From NCBI GenBank assembly GCA_965285935.1, contig OZ260664.1, positions 67,518,001-67,582,000 of the forward strand: 64,000 nucleotides of DNA, given 5' to 3'. This document shows positions 34,697 to 64,000 of the stretch, piece after piece (position 1 is the stretch's first letter; each line of letters begins with the position of its first letter). Source of the stretch: Ophelia neglecta (lineage: Eukaryota). The position numbers and the translations under genes are program-made. The notes under the pieces are model-generated. The model saw only the letters and a list, made by a program, of their open reading frames with translations. It was not told the origin of the DNA and ran no database searches.

Positions 34697-35120
34697 TGGT
34701 TTGATCATTAGACTGTTAACCCATTGGTTTGATCATTAGACTGTTAACCCATTGGTTTGATCATTAGACTGTTAACCCATTGGTTTGATCATTAGATTGT
34801 TAACCCATTGGTTTGATCATTAGACTGTTAACCCATTGGTTTGATCATTAGACTGTTAACCCATTGGTTTGATCATTAGACTGTTAACCCATTGGTTTGA
34901 TCATTAGACTGTTAACCCATTGGTTTGATCATTAGACTGTTAACCCATTGGTTTGATCATTAGACTGTTAACCCATTGGTTTGATCATTAGACTGTTAAC
35001 CCATTGGTTTGATCATTAGACTGTTAACCCATTGGTTTGATCATTAGACTGTTAACCCATTGGTTTGATCATTAGACTGTTAACCCATTGGTTTGATCAT
35101 TAGACTGTTAACCCATTGGT
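34697..35120. repeat. Near-perfect tandem array, 15 x 28 bp (GGTTTGATCATTAGACTGTTAACCCATT)
   Basis: 34698-35117 = 420 bp = 15 units, with a single C>T variant at 34797 (copy 4). TGGT occurs at both boundaries. No spacers. Confidence 0.98.
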
Positions 35121-38100
35121 GAAAAAAAGGGTGGAGGGATTCAGTTTACAACACAAGATAACCTGAATCTAAAATGGCCTATGCTTATACAACATGTGTT
35201 ATTGTATTAGTGTAGGTGCATACAGTATTATGTCAACGATCTGATTCAAATGAAGAAAAACTGCGTGCACCGATTCCTTAATGATAGTTTGAAAAAAAAA
35301 CAGCACTCGTATTCAAAGAAATGTCTCGTGGCTGTATAAGACTTTCCAGTATATTGCACCAAAAGAGCGTTTGGTTTAACTTATTGTTGAAGATCCCAAT
35401 ATTGCTGTATATGATAAGTTGGTAGGCCAAATTAGAATGCGGGAAATAGGATGATTTTTTTTACGCGCCCATGCAACAGAGGCGAGTGGAGTTTCCCAAA
35501 TATGCTGATGCGGAAAGCGTGTGACTTTATTGTGTTGCTGGCTTACCAGATGCGGGGGGTGGCATTATTTGATAGGCATAATCATACTAAAAAAAATTCG
35601 GTGCAATGATCATGGAAGGAGGCGGTCGTTGCCTGAGAATCACTTTATTAACTTAAGGTGGCCTTATAGTGCGATATGCCTATGTGTTTCCAGTTATAGT
35701 TTCCACAATGCTTGCTTGTTATGATCAGAGGTTTGGGTTACTTGCATGCATGTGCACTGCAAACCACTTTTCATTATTACCTCGATTTTTTGTTATGTTA
35801 GAATTCTTGATAAAAGAGATAGTTTTATCGGTGTGTTTTCAATGTAGCCACTGGCCCAATAAATCAAAGGCCATAATATTTCAAGTCTTAGATTAATGCA
35901 CATGGTATACACCAATAGCAAAAAAAAAAAGTCGGTAATCTACTCCATAGTTATATTAGTGTCAGACGATCTTTTGCCCTGCTAGGCCTAGATGTATATA
36001 ATGTATTAATGGATATGCAATGGCTGCCTCTAGATCTGAACTGTTACTAATATTATAGACCTGTAACATGGTCTCTGACACTCAGATACACCTGCACATT
36101 GCACTACATGCAGTGATAAACAGGAACTAAGACTTTATATTTTCATAATAGACCGTTACTATGTCTCTACATTGGAAGCGGCCCCATGTTTACTCAGATT
36201 TAACCACGCCGCAGGACATGAGTGCTAGCCTGGCTGGTCAGTTTACAGGAGCGTGTTATCAGCCTCTAACCACCTTGCAGTACCTCCCTGACAGGCGTTG
36301 GGACGGTTTTAGGACTGGTCTTTTCTGGGATCAAATTTATCAGGGAGGAAGAATATTTTGAACTGTAACTAGTACCGGTAGTACCCCATTGAAAAATAAC
36401 ACATATAGCCGGTATTTCAAATGACTAACGAACTGCAGCATTAGAAGCCCTAACGTATTTCGAACGTTCAAGCCATAAGCATATTCCCCGACAATTCAGA
36501 ATCTCCACCTCTCCCCCGTGCACTCGTGGCAAGGCAAGCAACAGTACATACATATAAGTCTGCTCTCCATTTATCCTAGGTTTTTCTAATGGACGCCATA
36601 ATATCAAGTCTGTACAGTATCCTGTGGCACACTCAGCACCACTCCGCTGATATCTCTCATTGCCATTAAAGAAAAAATCAGCTCAATGCCAAACATGTCC
36701 AGGGCGAATACCGCATTATGTAGATCCGCCCCAAAGTGTCTGAGAACGTTACCGATGGAGCCTTATCTCAGTGCCAGTGTTATCTATGCCTGAAGACATC
36801 GCAACCCTGAAGCTATCTCTCGGGTTACTCCGAATAACCCCGATAAATACTTCTACAGTATCGTGTCGCGACCTTCAGCATTCCAAATGGACGAGTGAGA
36901 TGAATAAATTCATCCCAGTGGTTTCCGACCCTATGATGTTGCCTCGTTTACATGTTTATATTTAGTTTCATGTTTGGGCATTGATTTCTTGATTCGTATC
37001 TGATGTAAAGCGTCATTCAAGTTGGCACAAAATAAATTTTGGAAAAAGTGTTCATAATAGAGACAAACTGAATGGGAGTAACTTCTAGAAAATTATAGCC
37101 AATAACTTGACAATAAGGCAGTCCCGCCTCTATCACGTAAATACTGGCTCTTCAGCAGTTTTCGAATCTGCCCTTGGCATGAATCCGAGCAGACGGGTAG
37201 TTTATAAGCCAAGTGATCAGGGGTAATTCGCCGGTCATATTTCATTGATTGGCGGCTGCGTTTTGTAATGGATCATGCCAGGGAGGAGACTTCCTATTCC
37301 TCTCCATCACCCATGCGGCCCCGCCGCCGCACGCCGCGCAGACCTGCCGTACACGGACAACTCGCCCTTGGCTCAGATTGTCAGTAGGCTCTTAACGGCC
37401 AGCGCCAGTACTCAGCTCTCAGTGACAGATGCCTACACCAGACGACCGTCTGCTCCACGTGGGTTCTTACAGGCAGCTTCCGGATAGCCTACATGCCTTG
37501 TAACCTTTTTTTTGATATTGGACAGAAACGTTCATCGTATGGATCAGACAAGGCTGCTTAATTTACTGTAGAAGTCTGCACAGGAACCCTGCATATCTGT
37601 AAATCCTTGCAGTATGAGCAGTGTCTGTGCAGTGGATGGATTACTTAATATGGTTATCATAGGTCCCGTGGGCGTGAATCTCATCAGCTTCAACGGATAA
37701 AATTCTCGGCATTTCATTAGCTGAATGAAATATTGCGTAACCAGTAAACCGTCCAGCTTCTCTGCCAGAGATACGGCATAGAAACGCGTCAAAAATTAGA
37801 GTGAGTACGGCTTATTTTCATCATAGTTATTCTTGATAGTTGCTGAGGCTTTGGCATTAAAATTCCAGCAGGAAGGCAGCAACTGTGTGAAACAAAGCCT
37901 CTGTGTTGACCACACGATTTTAAGGGACTCCTCAGGGCGAAACATTAGCAGGAGAACAAAGCATAACAACGTAGTGGACACAGGCGTCGTTTGGTAAAAG
38001 CGGAACAAATGTACGCTGGTACTTGAATCTGGAGGGTATTCATAGCTGCTGAGGCTCCAGTAGCCCCTGTCCCAGACAACAACCCGGCCTCTTCAGCCAG

Positions 38101-56700: not shown

Positions 56701-58225
56701 ACACACCCTTGCCCGTTTCCTTATGGGACGTCGGACTCCTTAGAACACACACATAAAGTAAATAATTGTCACTTTATCTTATTATTGACAAAAAAGTGAA
56801 TTCCAATTGGAGGAAAATGGGGATGATATTGGCCATGACAAAACATATCCGTGTACATTCATGGCATGTCTGCATGTCTTTGTCCTTTTTGTGTTTAATC
56901 ACTCTAAGTTTTATATTTATACATAGGTTTAAACCCCATATAGACATATATAATTTAGTTGAACATAACCATCCATTCATATATGCAAACAAGCCCAACG
57001 GATTTTAATCTAATTTCATCATTCCGGTTTATTCTGTTTTATTGGAGTGTCCGCGGGCCAGAAAGCAAAGGATCCCGACGACACGATCATTATGTGGTTT
57101 GTTATTTTTTAAAATGGATTGTTTATTGGCCGAGTGCTACTGAAGCATAAACAGTTAAGCAATTTGGATCTTTTAAAAACGGGCGCAGTACGTATTTGGA
57201 GTTGTTGAACTAGGAATAAACGCTTCTACCTTTCTCACTTTGAATGGCTTTCGTTTGTACCCTCACCTTTAAATAAATACGAACCCTGTTTGACCTTATA
57301 GTCTTATATGAATTATAGGCCTAAAACCTTTGAACCGGATTTCACAGAAATGATTGCAATTTCTCAGCCGTCTCCGGTTTCATTTTTTCGGTACTACACT
57401 GTACTACTATTGATTCAAGCTGAATAAATATGTACGTCCTTGCTTTGGATGACACTTTCATCATATTATTCAAATGTAATTTCAAAGGTACGCTCCTAAT
57501 GGTAGACATTTCTTCACGTGCTGTCCTCAATGCGTACGTTATAGATGCCAAACAGCTGGCCTTTAAGCACAGCCTTGCATAATACTGGCATAACATCCAT
57601 GTATAACTAAGTTGAAGTAGCTTTCGGTGCCATGCTGTTGTCAATTAAGTAAACAAAACTGCAGTCTTGATTCCACAGTTTGTATTGGAGCATGCACCAA
57701 GGGATCTTTAGCTACAGGCATAACTGTTTGCATATATAGCCTATAACTACCTATTTGTGTACCGGGGAACAATTAAGTCGCTTTCTTACGCTCGCGGGAT
57801 GGGTACGCCAGACATTCGTGAATATAAGTTTCTGATATAGTGGGTTATACTACTGTAGTTCTAAGTAACACGTTTTCGACGAAACAGACTGTATTCAGGA
57901 CGATGCGTGTCTGTATTTAACTGCCTAATGGCAATAATGACTAACCTCATACATTAGTAACAGGTACATGCCACATGACACAGTTTAGGCTTTCAGTTAA
58001 TGAATGGTAAGGTGTACACTGGTACTCCAGACCAAGGCCCATTATTTTATTCAAGTAAACTGATTTGGTAATAGTTTGTACATGCTAGGCCTACTGGAGT
58101 CATTCCCCTTTGCCTACAAGAAGATGTCATGCAATTCCCTTGATGCTGCCTGAGAGCTAAATTGGATAATATCCTAATGAATGTTTCTCCAATATTTCAG
58201 AAATTTAAACGAAGCCCAATTGGAG

Positions 58226-58694
58226 ATGGGAAATAAGCAGTCCTCTCGCCGGAAGTCGGCAAACGATGTCCCCGATGGAAAGGCAAAGAAAGACAAACGC
58301 AGCAGAAACAAGAAAAATGGGGTCTCGGACGGAACAGTAGCTCGGAGGTCGACATCGGACATCGGAGGAGGCGCTATCTCTTACAGCAGGTACCAAGAGG
58401 AGCCGGAACTGGATATCAAACTGTATCGCTCTTATGGAAACTTGGCAACATCTAAGTTTGGAAGTATAAGAGAGCCTGATCCCCTCGTGGACGTTCGAGT
58501 ATACCGGAAGAGCGTGGGTGCATATCCCGGCAAGTCACAGACGCTCCCTCGTAGTTTTGGGCGAGCCAAGAGCGAACTTTCTGCCCTGCCCAATGGAACA
58601 TTGCCGCTTAGAGAGAAAAAGAGTCCCGGCTCCGTCGGAGGAAGTGATGACAGGGCCTCAAAACGCTCATCCACGTCCAGCTTGGGGCAGAGAG
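58226..58694 (+). CDS. Uncharacterised pentapeptide-repeat protein, first coding exon (MGNKQS myristoylation-type start, polybasic, Ser-rich disordered)
   Basis: Acceptor tgtttctccaatatttcAG at 58199-58200, gagATGg Kozak context, open frame of 156 codons with a GC rise over the flanks, donor AG|GTAAGA at 58695 (phase 1). Confidence 0.85.
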
Positions 58695-58832
58695 GTAAGA
58701 TATTTTCGAACTGTAAGGCTATCAGCTGTTACCCTGTACTCTAGCTATGCAAAGACGCATCAAATACCGCCACCAGGGGGAAATGCATAAAGTGTGTTTA
58801 ATTTGATTATATGTATGTATTTTTCTTTTCAG

Positions 58833-60365
58833 TTCAAGTTGCTTATGGGGATTTCCCTGCCACACGTGACATCATACGCAAACTGGGTCAATTCGAAGAC
58901 CATTTCGCACGTCTGCTGGTATCGAAATATCGAAAGATGCCGTACCTCGTACAGCTGTCCACTGTGACAATTGCGGTAAAACTGGCCAAAAAGGGGCACC
59001 AAACTATATCGCTCCATGACTACCTCGAAGAGCAATCTACTCCATTAGACCTGATGGAAGAGGCCGAAGAAGCGGAGGAATACGTGCTGAAAATTCCAAC
59101 TGCCCTCTTTCACGGTATCATGCACGTCCGCCGGGACAAGATAACTGACGCAGAGCTGTTCCAGTCTCTTGCACGTGATCTTGTTACCTGCGTTGCCGTT
59201 GAAGCCGCCAATGAGGTTTCTCGAGTGTTCGAGTACCAAATCTCACTACTCAACGAGGAGACATCCATCCGCCTGCTTGCTGATCACGCCGCTGATTGCA
59301 TCATGCAATATATTCAAGCCGGGAATAAACACTTGGACAGGAACACTGCAATTGTGGGAGTTGTTAAAGGTCGGGCTGATCCTAAAGGGTACCCGAAACT
59401 CATCTCGGTTATCATCGGTAACCGTGAACTTAAATGGGAACTGGACGACATTTTGAAACTACCGGCCCTGCGTAGGGAAATGCTATTGTTCACAGACGAC
59501 ATTGAGATTGACGATGACAATCCACCATGGGAATTTCAGTTCAACAACAAGTCTGACCCCATGCTATATGGCTATCGCGGGATGATCCTTGAGTGGGACT
59601 TCGTCAACAAGGTGTACCGCGTCTATAAACAAGAAGACAAGATGTACACGGAGGAAGTGACGTATCGCTATGACGACTTCCATCGGGAATATCTGCCCTA
59701 TCGGCGTCTGCTCGGCTCTGATGTAATGGAGAGCTACTGTCAAGCCAAGACGAGCAAAAAAAGTAACATTTCCTTGACAGAGTATCTCCAGGGGGCGGTA
59801 GGTGGCACTTTCAGCCGAGATGAGATTCAGCCTGTGTACAGGCCACTGGCTCCCGCCGCCACGGCTATGAACTTTGACAACGCTGTCCTAGATGATGTTG
59901 ACCTGACCCGAATGCAACTGGACAGAGCGGACCTGCGGCGTGCCAGTGTCCGAAACACCAAGCTGATGCTGGCAGACGCCTCCGAGTCCAACATGGAGAA
60001 AACGCCAATTAAGGGGGCCGACATATCGTACAGCAACATAGAAGGTGCTAATCTGGACCCGGACAGGCTGGAAGGAGTTACTGTCAAACACGTATCTATG
60101 TCAGAAAAATACGAACCTGTAGCTAAACGCCTTTTCTCAGAGGATGATGACAAATATAAAGGTAGTGAAGAAATAGGCTTTAACTGGCATCAAGACGAAA
60201 CAGATGGTAGTGAAATGGGCTCAAAACAACAAAACAGAGATGAGGTGCTAGCTCAGCCTCTAGAGGTGAACGTGGTCAACGGAGAAAAGAAGACAAAGAA
60301 AAGAAAGAAGCGCCGTTCACGAATAGTCAGCGATAAAGAAGGACACATCGTCAGTGTCGATCAAG
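58833..60365 (+). CDS. Uncharacterised pentapeptide-repeat protein, large exon (unknown globular domain + 16 pentapeptide repeats + acidic/basic region)
   Basis: Within the 523-aa ORF 58811..60382. Acceptor tttttcttttcAG at 58831-58832 is phase 1, matching the previous exon (138-bp intron). Repeats MNFDN AVLDD VDLTR MQLDR ADLRR ASVRN ... ADISY SNIEG ANLDP lie at 59867-60106. Donor CAAG|GTGGGT at 60366 (phase 1). Confidence 0.9.
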
Positions 60366-61105
60366 GTGGGTACATATTGTGATTAATTATTAAAAACAAA
60401 TGTATATCGTACAACATATTCCTTCTAAAACGCAGGGCCCACTCTTTAAATTGTATATGTATTCAAATCGCACGAAAACAAGACGTTTCAGGTCAGAAGC
60501 TAGCGCCATATGAACGAGCAGCAGTGTATTGACTAAAAAGTTTTACTTTTGGTTATCACTCTAAGGATTAACCATAATTACCCTTTTCATTCTTTCCAAC
60601 TTAATCTATTAGTAATTTTTTGTCATCCGTCTCAACCGAATATTTAGTCAATCGTGCTGTTGGCCATGATAAATGACATTGAAAATCCAAGTTCGATTTT
60701 TATTTATATTTTATAATACTATTGCTAGAACCCCAAGGCTAGAATAGAGCATTATTGTAATTTGACTATTATCTGTATATAGGTTTAGTTTTTAAACAAA
60801 CAACTGCCGTGAAGCATTACTTTTAACAGGCCTAGAATTAACCATTGACAACATAATTTTAAACCATTATGAATCATATCTAGTGGCCTACTTACAAATT
60901 CATGTGCTAAAAATGAAAAGTCATATAGCACACGGAAAGTTGGCCCAAAGCTGTTTCGTACAAAATGTAAATAGGCGTGTCAGACGGTAGCTAGGCTGTT
61001 ATTACTTACCAGGTCAACTGAATAAACCAGTTAATTGGAACCAGAAACATCACACCTCAAGCTCACACAGGGGGAATGCAATTTCTGACCCTGCTGGGTG
61101 TACTG

Positions 61106-61305
61106 GCGGGAGGGGCCGGAGGGTGGAGGGGGGGGGGTCGACGTAGGGAATGTTTGAGCCGTGTGGGGTTAAGACGATATACTCTGTACTCGTAGTAATA
61201 GTGCGGGAGGGGCCGGAGGGTGGAGGGGGGGGGGGGGGGTCGACGTAGGGAATGTTTGAGCCTGTGGGGTTAAGACGATACACTCTGTACTCGTAGTAAT
61301 AGTGC
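61106..61305. repeat. Tandem duplication of a ~100-bp G-rich unit (2 copies), intronic
   Basis: gcgggaggggccggagggtgga(G)n-tcgacgtagggaatgtttgagcc...gtagtaatagt repeats at 61106 and 61203. The copies differ in G-run length, a 1-nt indel and 1 substitution. Confidence 0.95.
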
Positions 61306-63602
61306 CCTGGGGCATTCTAGTATATGCCTTGCATATCTGTGCGATCGAGGTTGAGCAGCAGGTGATGATTATTACAACTCACTAAAGGCCCTAGCTCAAA
61401 TATGCTTGAATTACATTTTATTGAAAACGCGTCTTGCATTGGCCAACACTATATTCCTGACTGTCATCTTACTAGTTGCAAACTGTGTTTGACCTCCGAG
61501 CCTTGACTCAGTCAGACCTCGGAAAGACGATCCAACTTCAGACAACTCACTTGAGATGTGTGTAGGATCAGTAATCGTTTGGTGGCTGACACATGGTCGT
61601 GTGTGCTTGTTTATATTAGTCGGGATGTTGGACTACCAATTGTTATGACGTTGAGCGTATTTTAGTTTTAATGGAAAAGTTAGTTTTGGGGCTGGCGTAT
61701 GAAGATAACAGAATTTAGCCTATTGAATAGGTCTACTGTAAGTAAAACAACAACATTTGGCCTGCTAATTGGCCTAATGTTGAAGCAATAGTAATACACC
61801 TAGGTCAGATTAGTTCAGAAAGATTTTGCAATAAACGCCGAAAGGGAATGTCATTTTTGTAGTGGCGATTTAGCAAACTTTGTAGATATAAAAGGCGTCA
61901 CTAAAATTGTGAATTTCTGAAGTAAATATACAACTTTGCTCCGCATTCCTGAACTATGGATAACAATTCTTAAACATTGTATTAGGCCCCCCCCCCCCTA
62001 TATACAATTCAAAGAGTAGTGTCATGTTAATGCCTATATGTGTGTGTACCGGCACCTCAGTAGTATGTTGTAATGCAGAGAGACGCAGCAGTACTGATTA
62101 ATATATCTGAGCAGAGTAGTCGTTCTACTCGCTCCTTCCCGAAAGTTGCAAGAATTTATCAATGTTACTATTTTTCGCCTATACATGCAAAGTTAATGCA
62201 ACTAAAACCTATTGTCATGGAGATTCGCAAGTTACATACAAAAGTCCGAACTATGATATCAATATATAGCCTATTATAGCGCCAAGAAGATATTTTATTT
62301 TGAATGGTTGACGTTAGAAGCATTTTCAGTGGGATCAATATTGTTCATCTTTCTTTCGCAGCCGACATTAATTTGAGAAAAGAGCAACTGCTAAGAACAT
62401 ATACTTAGAGTTGGCTTTCAACGAGTGCCATCATGCATATGTGATGTGGCAAAGGCCTTGGCCACGTGATAACAATTTGTCGTGGAAACTATTCACGATC
62501 ATTGGGTTTGAGTTTCCTAGCTCAATCACATACCAGATGAAAATTGGGCGCCTTTTCTTTACTCCAAAGCGGGCCCACGCCTCCGCCCGGGGAGTTAAAT
62601 GAAATCCAGGTTTTAGACCATGAGAAGGAGAGAGGATTGATATAACTTAGTGTGAACATGTGCTTAGAAAGGACAACCATGGCCAACTTCACTTTGTAGC
62701 GGAGTACCCCGCGGAGTGGTACAGCGTAACACCATTTTGTAAACTACTCTAGCAGGCCCTATCTTGGCATACAAAAAGAAGTCTTCGTTAAATGGTCTCC
62801 CTAGTTAAGCACGATGGATTACGTATATTTATTTAGGAATAAATACAACATATGCAGAATATGAACATGAGACGTTGAAAAGAAGATACTAAGGAACACC
62901 TGTAATATTTACTGGTATATGCTTCTATATACGTGTGTTTGTAGAAAGGTGGAGGGGCATCACGGTGCTGTTGTCAACACGCATATATGTGCACTATATA
63001 ACTAGAGGTTTACGGATTCACACTGGCACTCATTGATCATTAGCAGATCGAGTTTTTTTTGGATCTTGCTTGTGGACAGGAGAGAAAAGAGTGTTTGATG
63101 ATAACTCAAATAACTGACTTCTGGAATATGGCGACTTGTTAAGTTCTATACCCTTTTCTTTAATTATGTGGGCTGCATTGAATGAAAGGTAGTAAAAACC
63201 GTGCACCATTTTGAACGGAACACACACTGTACGTTGTGCTGTTGTTTCAACGGGATCGAATTCTAAGAGAGTTAGGCGTAGGACGATAACAAGGGATGAT
63301 TATCATCTTTTTTTCAGCAGAGGTTGAAATTGTAGTGGGCTATGTGATTTATTTGATAGATACGGCGTGGGAAGAAAGAAACAATAATTAGGTTTAGATA
63401 GCATACATATTCTGCAAGTCCTTGTTGTGCTGTTATTATCGAGAAAAATAGACTTTTACCATCGAGTAAAGAGAAAAAAGTTAAGGAATGCAAGACTTGG
63501 ATGTATATCGGTATTGAGGTTTTCATCGTGCATGTGCATTGTGTGACCATTTTCTTTGCGTAGTGGCGGACTAATTTTGAATTTGATTATTTTTGTTTAC
63601 AG

Positions 63603-64000
63603 TAATTGAACAAAAGCAAAAAGACATCGCTGAAGGGAAGGAGAAGGAGCCTGAGCCGGAAGTGATCATAGAAACCCCCAGTCCCACGATTATATTTCAG
63701 CAGGTCCCAGGCAAAAGCTCAGAACGGCCAGTCCAACTGAGAAAAAAGAAGAAGCGTTTGAACACTAGTTTCACAAGCGATGTAGGTCCAGCAAGCGAAA
63801 GAAATGAAGAAACAACCTTGCACAATACAAGTTTGGACGCGAATCTTGTGAAAAGGACTGCCAGCGCGAGCCAGGCTAGGGGGTCACCGCCAGGCAGAGT
63901 GAACGTAGAGGTGATCGAAAGGCCTGCTAGTGCTACCCCAGTCCAGAGTCAACCTTTTCCCAAGTCCTCTCCAGGGAGTAGCCACCAGGCTAAGGCTTTC
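63603..64000 (+). CDS. Uncharacterised pentapeptide-repeat protein, next exon (disordered Ser/Pro-rich, RKKKKR); runs off the window
   Basis: Acceptor tatttttgtttacAG at 63601-63602, phase 1 matching the donor at 60366. 132 uninterrupted codons IEQKQKDIAEGKEKEPEPEVIIETPSP...QAKAF run to the window end. Not in the ORF track because there is no stop in the window. Confidence 0.82.

Follow-up and report, generated by a model that had tools for sequence, protein, structure and literature searches.

The window analysed here, a 64,000-nucleotide stretch of the Ophelia neglecta genome (contig OZ260664.1, positions 67,518,001 to 67,582,000 of the forward strand), carries at its right end (58226..64000) a gene for a protein of at least 800 residues. 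As judged by comparison with its relatives, the conserved unit of this protein is a 338-residue core, and the pentapeptide repeats that follow it are accessory. The explanation we favor, with a rough probability of 0.4, is that an immune or conflict effector-type domain has been kept here as a conserved, lipid-anchored and membrane-tethered module for binding or signaling, with the repeat as an optional surface. The protein would be cytosolic and held at the inner face of the membrane by an N-myristoyl group together with a basic patch, the core being its working part. In other relatives, the core is joined to STAND NTPases, to ZU5 or to repeat domains, in many cases with a helical hairpin that would suit contact with membranes. 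In the clade of the window protein (the window clade), a soluble insert would occupy the position of this hairpin, and the lipid anchor would take over the membrane targeting. The core would then act as a non-catalytic binding or signaling module under purifying selection, to which the four-coil β-helix might add an extra surface.

Modeled alone with AlphaFold2, the core (58835..59848, + strand) gave an alpha+beta fold with a predicted local distance difference test score (pLDDT) of 96.1 and a predicted template modeling score (pTM) of 0.93. According to DSSP, it consists of a helical bundle with an inserted beta-hairpin, followed by a beta-rich half. Profile scans detected no Pfam or NCBIfam family for it, none of the effector domains catalogued in Pfam, NCBIfam or PADLOC matched it, and the literature listings and passages searched showed no description of such a domain. 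A HMMER search among 1.84 billion representative sequences recovered 152 core relatives at E≤1e-3, 48 of them at 1e-30. The sequence-only reading of the window, which had proposed a distinct family with an ordered-looking but unrecognized domain of about 345 residues, is borne out by the missing catalogue entry and the confident fold. Its restriction to one invertebrate family was too narrow, since the core also occurs in STAND-fused proteins, after a ZU5 domain and in gammaproteobacterial genomes.

In the motif E127-x-x-R130-x-F-E133-Y-Q135 (59213..59239, + strand), Q135 is present in 70 of the 70 aligned proteins, E133 in 69 and E127 in 64. The most deeply kept motifs are W201, PxLR213 and Y245-G-Y-R248 (59435..59578, + strand), where W201, G246 and R248 are found in 70/70 and R213 in 66/70; Y286 is likewise kept in 66/70. 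Inside the window clade E133, Q135, W201, R213, G246, R248 and P288 are invariant (43/43), and E127, R130, D255, H283 (41/43) and Y286 reach at least 90%. The three bacterial forms that were aligned retain the W and the YG[YF]R, and E133 is replaced in two of them.

Among the 150 matches listed, at least seven proteins have the core, mostly together with pentapeptides, N-terminal to a P-loop region; 69 proteins were scanned for fusion partners, whereby the number of STAND fusions is a minimum. The NB-ARC-TPR profile NF040586 recognizes each of them, though below its cut-off (E 1e-13 to 1e-88), and each contains a Walker A GK[TS]; P0138 exceeds the Pfam cut-off for NB-ARC, and P0145 and P0156 have clear TPRs. 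Taken as single sequences, the STAND-fused proteins reach modest E-values (8e-7 to 5e-4), but an alignment of these seven with four unfused proteins (A3) matched the window clade in HHalign with a probability of 100% and an E-value of 5.6e-41 over 396 columns. STAND proteins usually have their effector in the N-terminal slot, and effector slots often hold enzymes, according to a study on such proteins (10.1101/2022.07.19.500537). Moreover, a ZU5 domain (E 1.2e-10) lies upstream of the core and repeat in L004; as far as the accessible sections of PMC8195603 go, ZU5 autoproteolysis is linked to effector release.

A short form of the core without pentapeptides was found in 3 of the 401 sampled gammaproteobacterial genomes, and a wider profile raised this to 5/401, with seven proteins in total. 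The 401 genomes were drawn from the class of G002, which we take to be the Gammaproteobacteria from the family name of L036. These bacterial genes adjoin relA, iscS and ABC-transporter genes and have ordinary chromosomal surroundings. The domains accompanying the bacterial cores include NACHT (E 2.6e-14; in one protein the core is C-terminal to it), Sel1 repeats (E 3.5e-24) and, by weak matches, HEAT or LRR, and three bacterial forms matched a mixed family profile in HHalign at 96.5% (E 7e-10). One of the seven bacterial proteins, P0205 (L070:5206-6393, − strand), is encoded beside an LRR gene and ends in C-T-I-Q. This end resembles a CaaX box, the signal for prenylation, and might be another lipid anchor on the core domain. 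Two other observations concern the neighbors of core-bearing genes: a divergently oriented gene in G460 encodes a 1564-residue pentapeptide and WD40 protein (L056:8112-12806), and a large open frame in G613 has a weak PARG-like match (L067:4544-7000, E 0.008).

The FastTree phylogeny of 73 cores (226 columns, midpoint root, without outgroup) separated the window clade from the rest with a support of 0.994. It also recovered a STAND-rich clade (0.965), a clade with hydrophobic hairpins (0.999) and a clade holding the named proteins of Owenia, Tubulanus and Argopecten (0.979). Since the tree has no outgroup, any order of events read from it is conditional. The introns and the named sister clade suggest that the window clade is spiralian, perhaps annelid. 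In the cluster of P0128, 11 copies are at least 90% identical, and as many as four of them lie on contigs of one and the same length, which suggests a tandem expansion. In L001, a relative from the STAND clade, an in-frame stop (1053-1055) interrupts the conserved PGLR motif and the similarity continues beyond it, so that this locus is either a pseudogene or a sequence error.

The clades differ in a variable insert (core residues 37-100; 58943..59134, + strand), which follows the first helix and precedes the helix with E-x-x-R-x-F-E-Y-Q. In the model of the window protein it forms a soluble beta-hairpin and helices (DSSP), whereas the alignment of distant clades has a Gly/Ala-rich or IPxxG helical hairpin at this position. 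The best 19-residue hydropathy of the insert reached 1.6 in all 8 scored proteins of the hairpin clade (median 1.97; 3 of its 11 proteins were dropped, their anchor motif being unmatched) and in 4 of 10 from the STAND clade (median 1.54). None of the three bacterial forms did so (median 1.28); an IPxxG-type turn is present in 6 of the 7 bacterial proteins. The value was also below 1.6 in 36/36 members of the window clade (0.72 in the window protein) and in 7/7 of the named spiralian clade. The clade with the lipid-anchor signal described below is thus one without a hydrophobic hairpin.

N-myristoylation takes place at Gly2 after the initiator methionine in a permitted context, and the window protein, starting with MGNKQS, has such a glycine. 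The predicted signal (Gly2, Asn3, Ser6) and the basic patch cover residues 1-45 (58226..58360, + strand), with 14 K/R among these 45 residues. Seven of the eight relatives that extend upstream of the core (P0017, P0022, P0030, P0044, P0061, P0066 and P0094) start with MGN, most of them with a basic patch, the compared cores being 19-52% identical in pairs. An alignment of nine N-termini shows three further short motifs in the arm, K-x-Y-R-S-Y, V-Y-[RK] and [ST]-L-P-R-x-F-G-R (residues 64-113; 58415..58564, + strand). The retention of Gly2-Asn3 across an otherwise divergent arm is good indirect evidence for the modification, and tethering of the window protein to the membrane by a myristoyl group is probable, as the sequence-only reading had also supposed. 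That reading had further pointed to a K/R-rich patch after the start and to two basic clusters, and all are present: KKTKKRKKRR at 60287-60316 (+ strand), with a similar cluster in P0001, and RKKKKR at 63740-63757 in exon 3. The former is possibly a nuclear or lipid-binding signal.

Behind the core follow sixteen pentapeptide repeats (59867..60106, + strand), which had been recognized from the sequence. They stand in register, with F/L/I/V/M at the central position in 15 of 16, and were modeled confidently as a four-coil right-handed quadrilateral beta-helix (residues 344-423); PF00805 matched them with 28.9 bits (E 8.6e-7), above its cut-off of 20.2. The repeat is mildly acidic (15 D/E versus 10 K/R). 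Of the 42 close relatives, only 17 have a repeat that could be detected, and none of the seven full-length MGN-start relatives does. Also as proposed earlier, neither a BTB domain nor a transmembrane segment was found: Pfam gave no BTB match at E≤1 in the three exons, the C-terminus past the window not being covered, and the highest 19-residue hydropathy in the 800 residues was 0.87.

By its structure and coding signals the locus is a real spliced animal gene, all of whose features lie on the + strand. Coding exon 1 (58226..58694; 469 nucleotides, 156 codons plus one base) encodes the low-complexity N-terminal arm, with a GC content of 0.53 versus 0.37 in intron 1 (58695..58832). Coding exon 2 (58833..60365; 1533 nucleotides) encodes the core, the pentapeptide helix and the beginning of the tail, and is 71% identical to its closest relative, P0001. 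Beyond intron 2 (60366..63602), probable coding exon 3 (63603..64000; 398 nucleotides, GC 0.51) continues the low-complexity tail past the window end. Both introns are in phase 1 with GT donors and AG acceptors, the joined exons give 800 codons without a stop, and the GC content is 0.49-0.53 in exons versus 0.37-0.40 in introns. With a codon-usage score trained on exons 1 and 2, the three exons were the top frames of the 371 in the window, exon 3 scoring 10.5 from its acceptor versus 6.4 for the best non-exon frame.

The three-exon model of at least about 800 residues, as first drawn from the sequence, therefore stands by its GT-AG ends, phase-1 introns and open codons, with exon 3 as probable. 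Its first junction (58694/58833) is supported by homology: in the 24 testable loci among 26 examined, mostly close kin of each other, an intron occupies the same position, with a phase-1 AG ahead of the same D[FL]P motif (24/24), and full-length contiguous relatives connect the same N-terminal motifs with the core. Two in-frame AG acceptors lie 6 nucleotides apart at 58827-58838, and in 23 of the 24 related loci the AG stands at the downstream position; two protein forms differing by two residues are possible. In most of the loci L008-L028, an additional intron interrupts the core at a point close to residue 382 in the numbering of the window protein; the window gene lacks this intron. At the second junction (60365/63603) the donor is matched in L002, whereas exon 3 has no match among the family relatives found. 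Out of six candidate acceptors in intron 2, only that of exon 3 opens a long phase-1 frame; the splice signals and the codon score make the link between exons 2 and 3 probable. Intron 2 also contains a 101-bp tandem duplication (61106-61305), of which one X2 contig skips 100 bases; it is either polymorphic or an assembly artifact.

The gene is under strong purifying selection. In three public DNA assemblies from one sample (X1-X3), which are interdependent and perhaps not independent of the window either, 40 of the 74 differences were listed, 20 of these falling in coding exons. Fifteen of the 20 are synonymous against an expected share of 0.23 (p ~1e-6), and no insertion or deletion lies inside an exon among the differences listed. 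Upstream, a probable untranslated start of the first coding exon (58201..58225, + strand) follows an AG acceptor at 58199-58200, the start context being GGAGATGG. Since this AG lies 25 nucleotides before the ATG and no stop closes the frame across the acceptor, the DNA alone is compatible with a coding exon farther upstream; an exon earlier than 58201 is likely, and none was found in the window. In the codon-score scan, none of the frames at positions 1-58000 had a clear coding signal, with weak candidates near 37217-37484; these 58 kb may belong to a long 5' intron or lie between genes. This part includes a 28-bp minisatellite at 34697-35120 (15 copies, 99% matches).

Several points weigh against an immune-derived, membrane-tethered and non-catalytic module. 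No family member has a known function. None of the window-clade proteins scanned has an NTPase, a ZU5 domain or another domain of immune proteins, and the clade appears conserved rather than expanded, so that it may nowadays serve a purpose outside immunity; a P-loop NTPase in particular was absent from the full-length relatives P0017, P0022, P0044, P0061, P0066 and P0094 and from the window's 800 residues. The ZU5 fusion was seen on one contig only, and the three bacterial forms match the window clade directly only weakly (25%, E 8e-4), intermediate clades being needed. As to the anchor, the extended relative P0078 starts otherwise than with MGN, and Ser6 occurs in only 5 of 8 MGN starts, the window protein included. 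The named spiralian clade, having neither anchor nor hairpin, weakens a simple swap of one for the other. Finally, the invariant polar residues E133, Q135, R213 and R248, along with H283, would fit an active site equally well.

The last point leads to the main rival, somewhat unlikely in our estimation, that the core has an enzymatic activity not described so far, directed at a membrane-located lipid, nucleotide or protein. Myristoylation would then place the enzyme near its substrate, and in relatives it would be activated by the STAND or ZU5 partner. The seven invariant and five nearly invariant residues of the window clade, the presence of Q135 and R248 in all clades (70/70) and the frequent occupation of STAND effector slots by enzymes, noted above, agree with it. 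Nevertheless, the E-x-Q motif is altered in two of the three aligned bacterial forms, no Cys/His/Asp or metal-binding pattern is common to all clades, and the conserved Glu and Arg may be buried salt bridges. What speaks for a non-catalytic role is that conservation reaches deepest at W, G and YG[YF]R, whereas E133 is replaced in two of the three aligned bacterial forms. A bolder version of the favored explanation leaves room for either mode of action, and we regard it as speculative: the core would be a structurally new immune or conflict effector common to host-associated gammaproteobacteria and several animal groups, activated by STAND NTPases or ZU5 cleavage and acting on membranes by its hairpin or a catalytic site, which one animal lineage turned into a conserved myristoylated signaling protein.

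A housekeeping scaffold, e.g., cytoskeletal, ciliary or junctional, whose immune link is ancient or whose animal domain was later recruited by others, is improbable. It would suit the strong purifying selection, the conserved intron and the long disordered arms with short conserved motifs, but hardly the patchy distribution, the repeated STAND, NACHT and ZU5 fusions and the copy-number expansion in a sister clade. That the window protein still damages membranes as the executioner of a cell-death or defense pathway, pre-positioned by its myristoyl anchor, we consider very unlikely. The Gly/Ala-rich hydrophobic hairpins of relatives and their place in effector slots suggest such an action, yet the window protein has no hydrophobic segment, and all 36 scored members of its clade stay below the hydropathy threshold. 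The second idea of the sequence-only reading, a nucleic-acid mimic, taken here as a β-helix that inhibits a DNA-binding enzyme in the manner of Qnr/MfpA, is scarcely credible, because in spite of a true Rfr fold, a mildly acidic repeat and basic clusters that could be nuclear signals, there are only four coils with patchy retention, a predicted membrane anchor, and scores far below the MfpA and Qnr cut-offs.

Compared to known systems, the window protein belongs to the pentapeptide superfamily (PF00805, Rfr fold: MfpA, Qnr, AlbG, NP275, Alr1298) by its 16 repeats and quadrilateral helix. In contrast to those proteins, its coils are appended to a larger unrelated core and often lost in relatives. 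Membership in the Qnr/MfpA family was rejected, with scores of 16.6 versus 240 bits (Qnr) and 25.8 versus 360 bits (MfpA) and about four coils versus about eight per chain. MfpA acts as a dimeric rod, AlbG has eight coils, and only two functions of the superfamily are counted as biochemically explained in the available part of a review (PMC8145042). The SopA/NleL ligases were rejected as well, since Pfam and NCBIfam gave no match outside the repeats, which are followed by a low-complexity tail instead of a HECT-like domain. So was SV2 (SV2A/C), whose multi-pass MFS body is absent, with neither a Pfam match nor sufficient hydropathy. KCTD9 combines its repeats with a BTB domain, unlike the window protein in the exons seen.

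With respect to the NLR-like STAND receptors (NB-ARC/AP-ATPase-TPR, NACHT), the core is homologous to the N-terminal effector-slot domain of the fused relatives, but the window protein, lacking an NTPase in its 800 residues, is not itself an NLR. Likewise, it has neither the ZU5 nor the Death domain of PIDD-like proteins, of which L004 with its upstream ZU5 is reminiscent. Membrane-inserting helical effectors of NLR pathways include the MLKL, HeLo and RPW8 types. Relatives of the core resemble these by a hydrophobic or amphipathic helical hairpin in a helical bundle; however, there is no Pfam match to them, the window clade has no hairpin, and the core has an extra beta-rich half. The accessible part of the Lipocone superfamily paper (PMC12419801) does not mention the core architecture. 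The same core occurs in uncharacterized proteins of Owenia fusiformis (CAH1788222.1), Tubulanus polymorphus (XP_074650910.1) and Argopecten irradians (XP_069102432.1), of which the first two keep pentapeptides; these form a separate clade, are 20-26% identical and have no MGN start. That effectors are shuffled on STAND receptors and that animals have kept such domains is known; the core itself is absent from Pfam, NCBIfam and PADLOC.

One pattern has led to the recognition of most of the immune effector domains known from animals, such as TIR, caspase, STING and gasdermin: occupation of the STAND effector slot, presence in bacteria and expanded invertebrate families. The core shows this pattern together with a high-confidence fold and no entry in three family libraries, which makes it a concrete target for structure determination and assay. 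The window protein also represents a third architecture of animal pentapeptide proteins, beside KCTD9 and SV2. The window gene itself may prove to be an ordinary scaffold, or its core may be a module of immune type that has been given a new use at the cell membrane.

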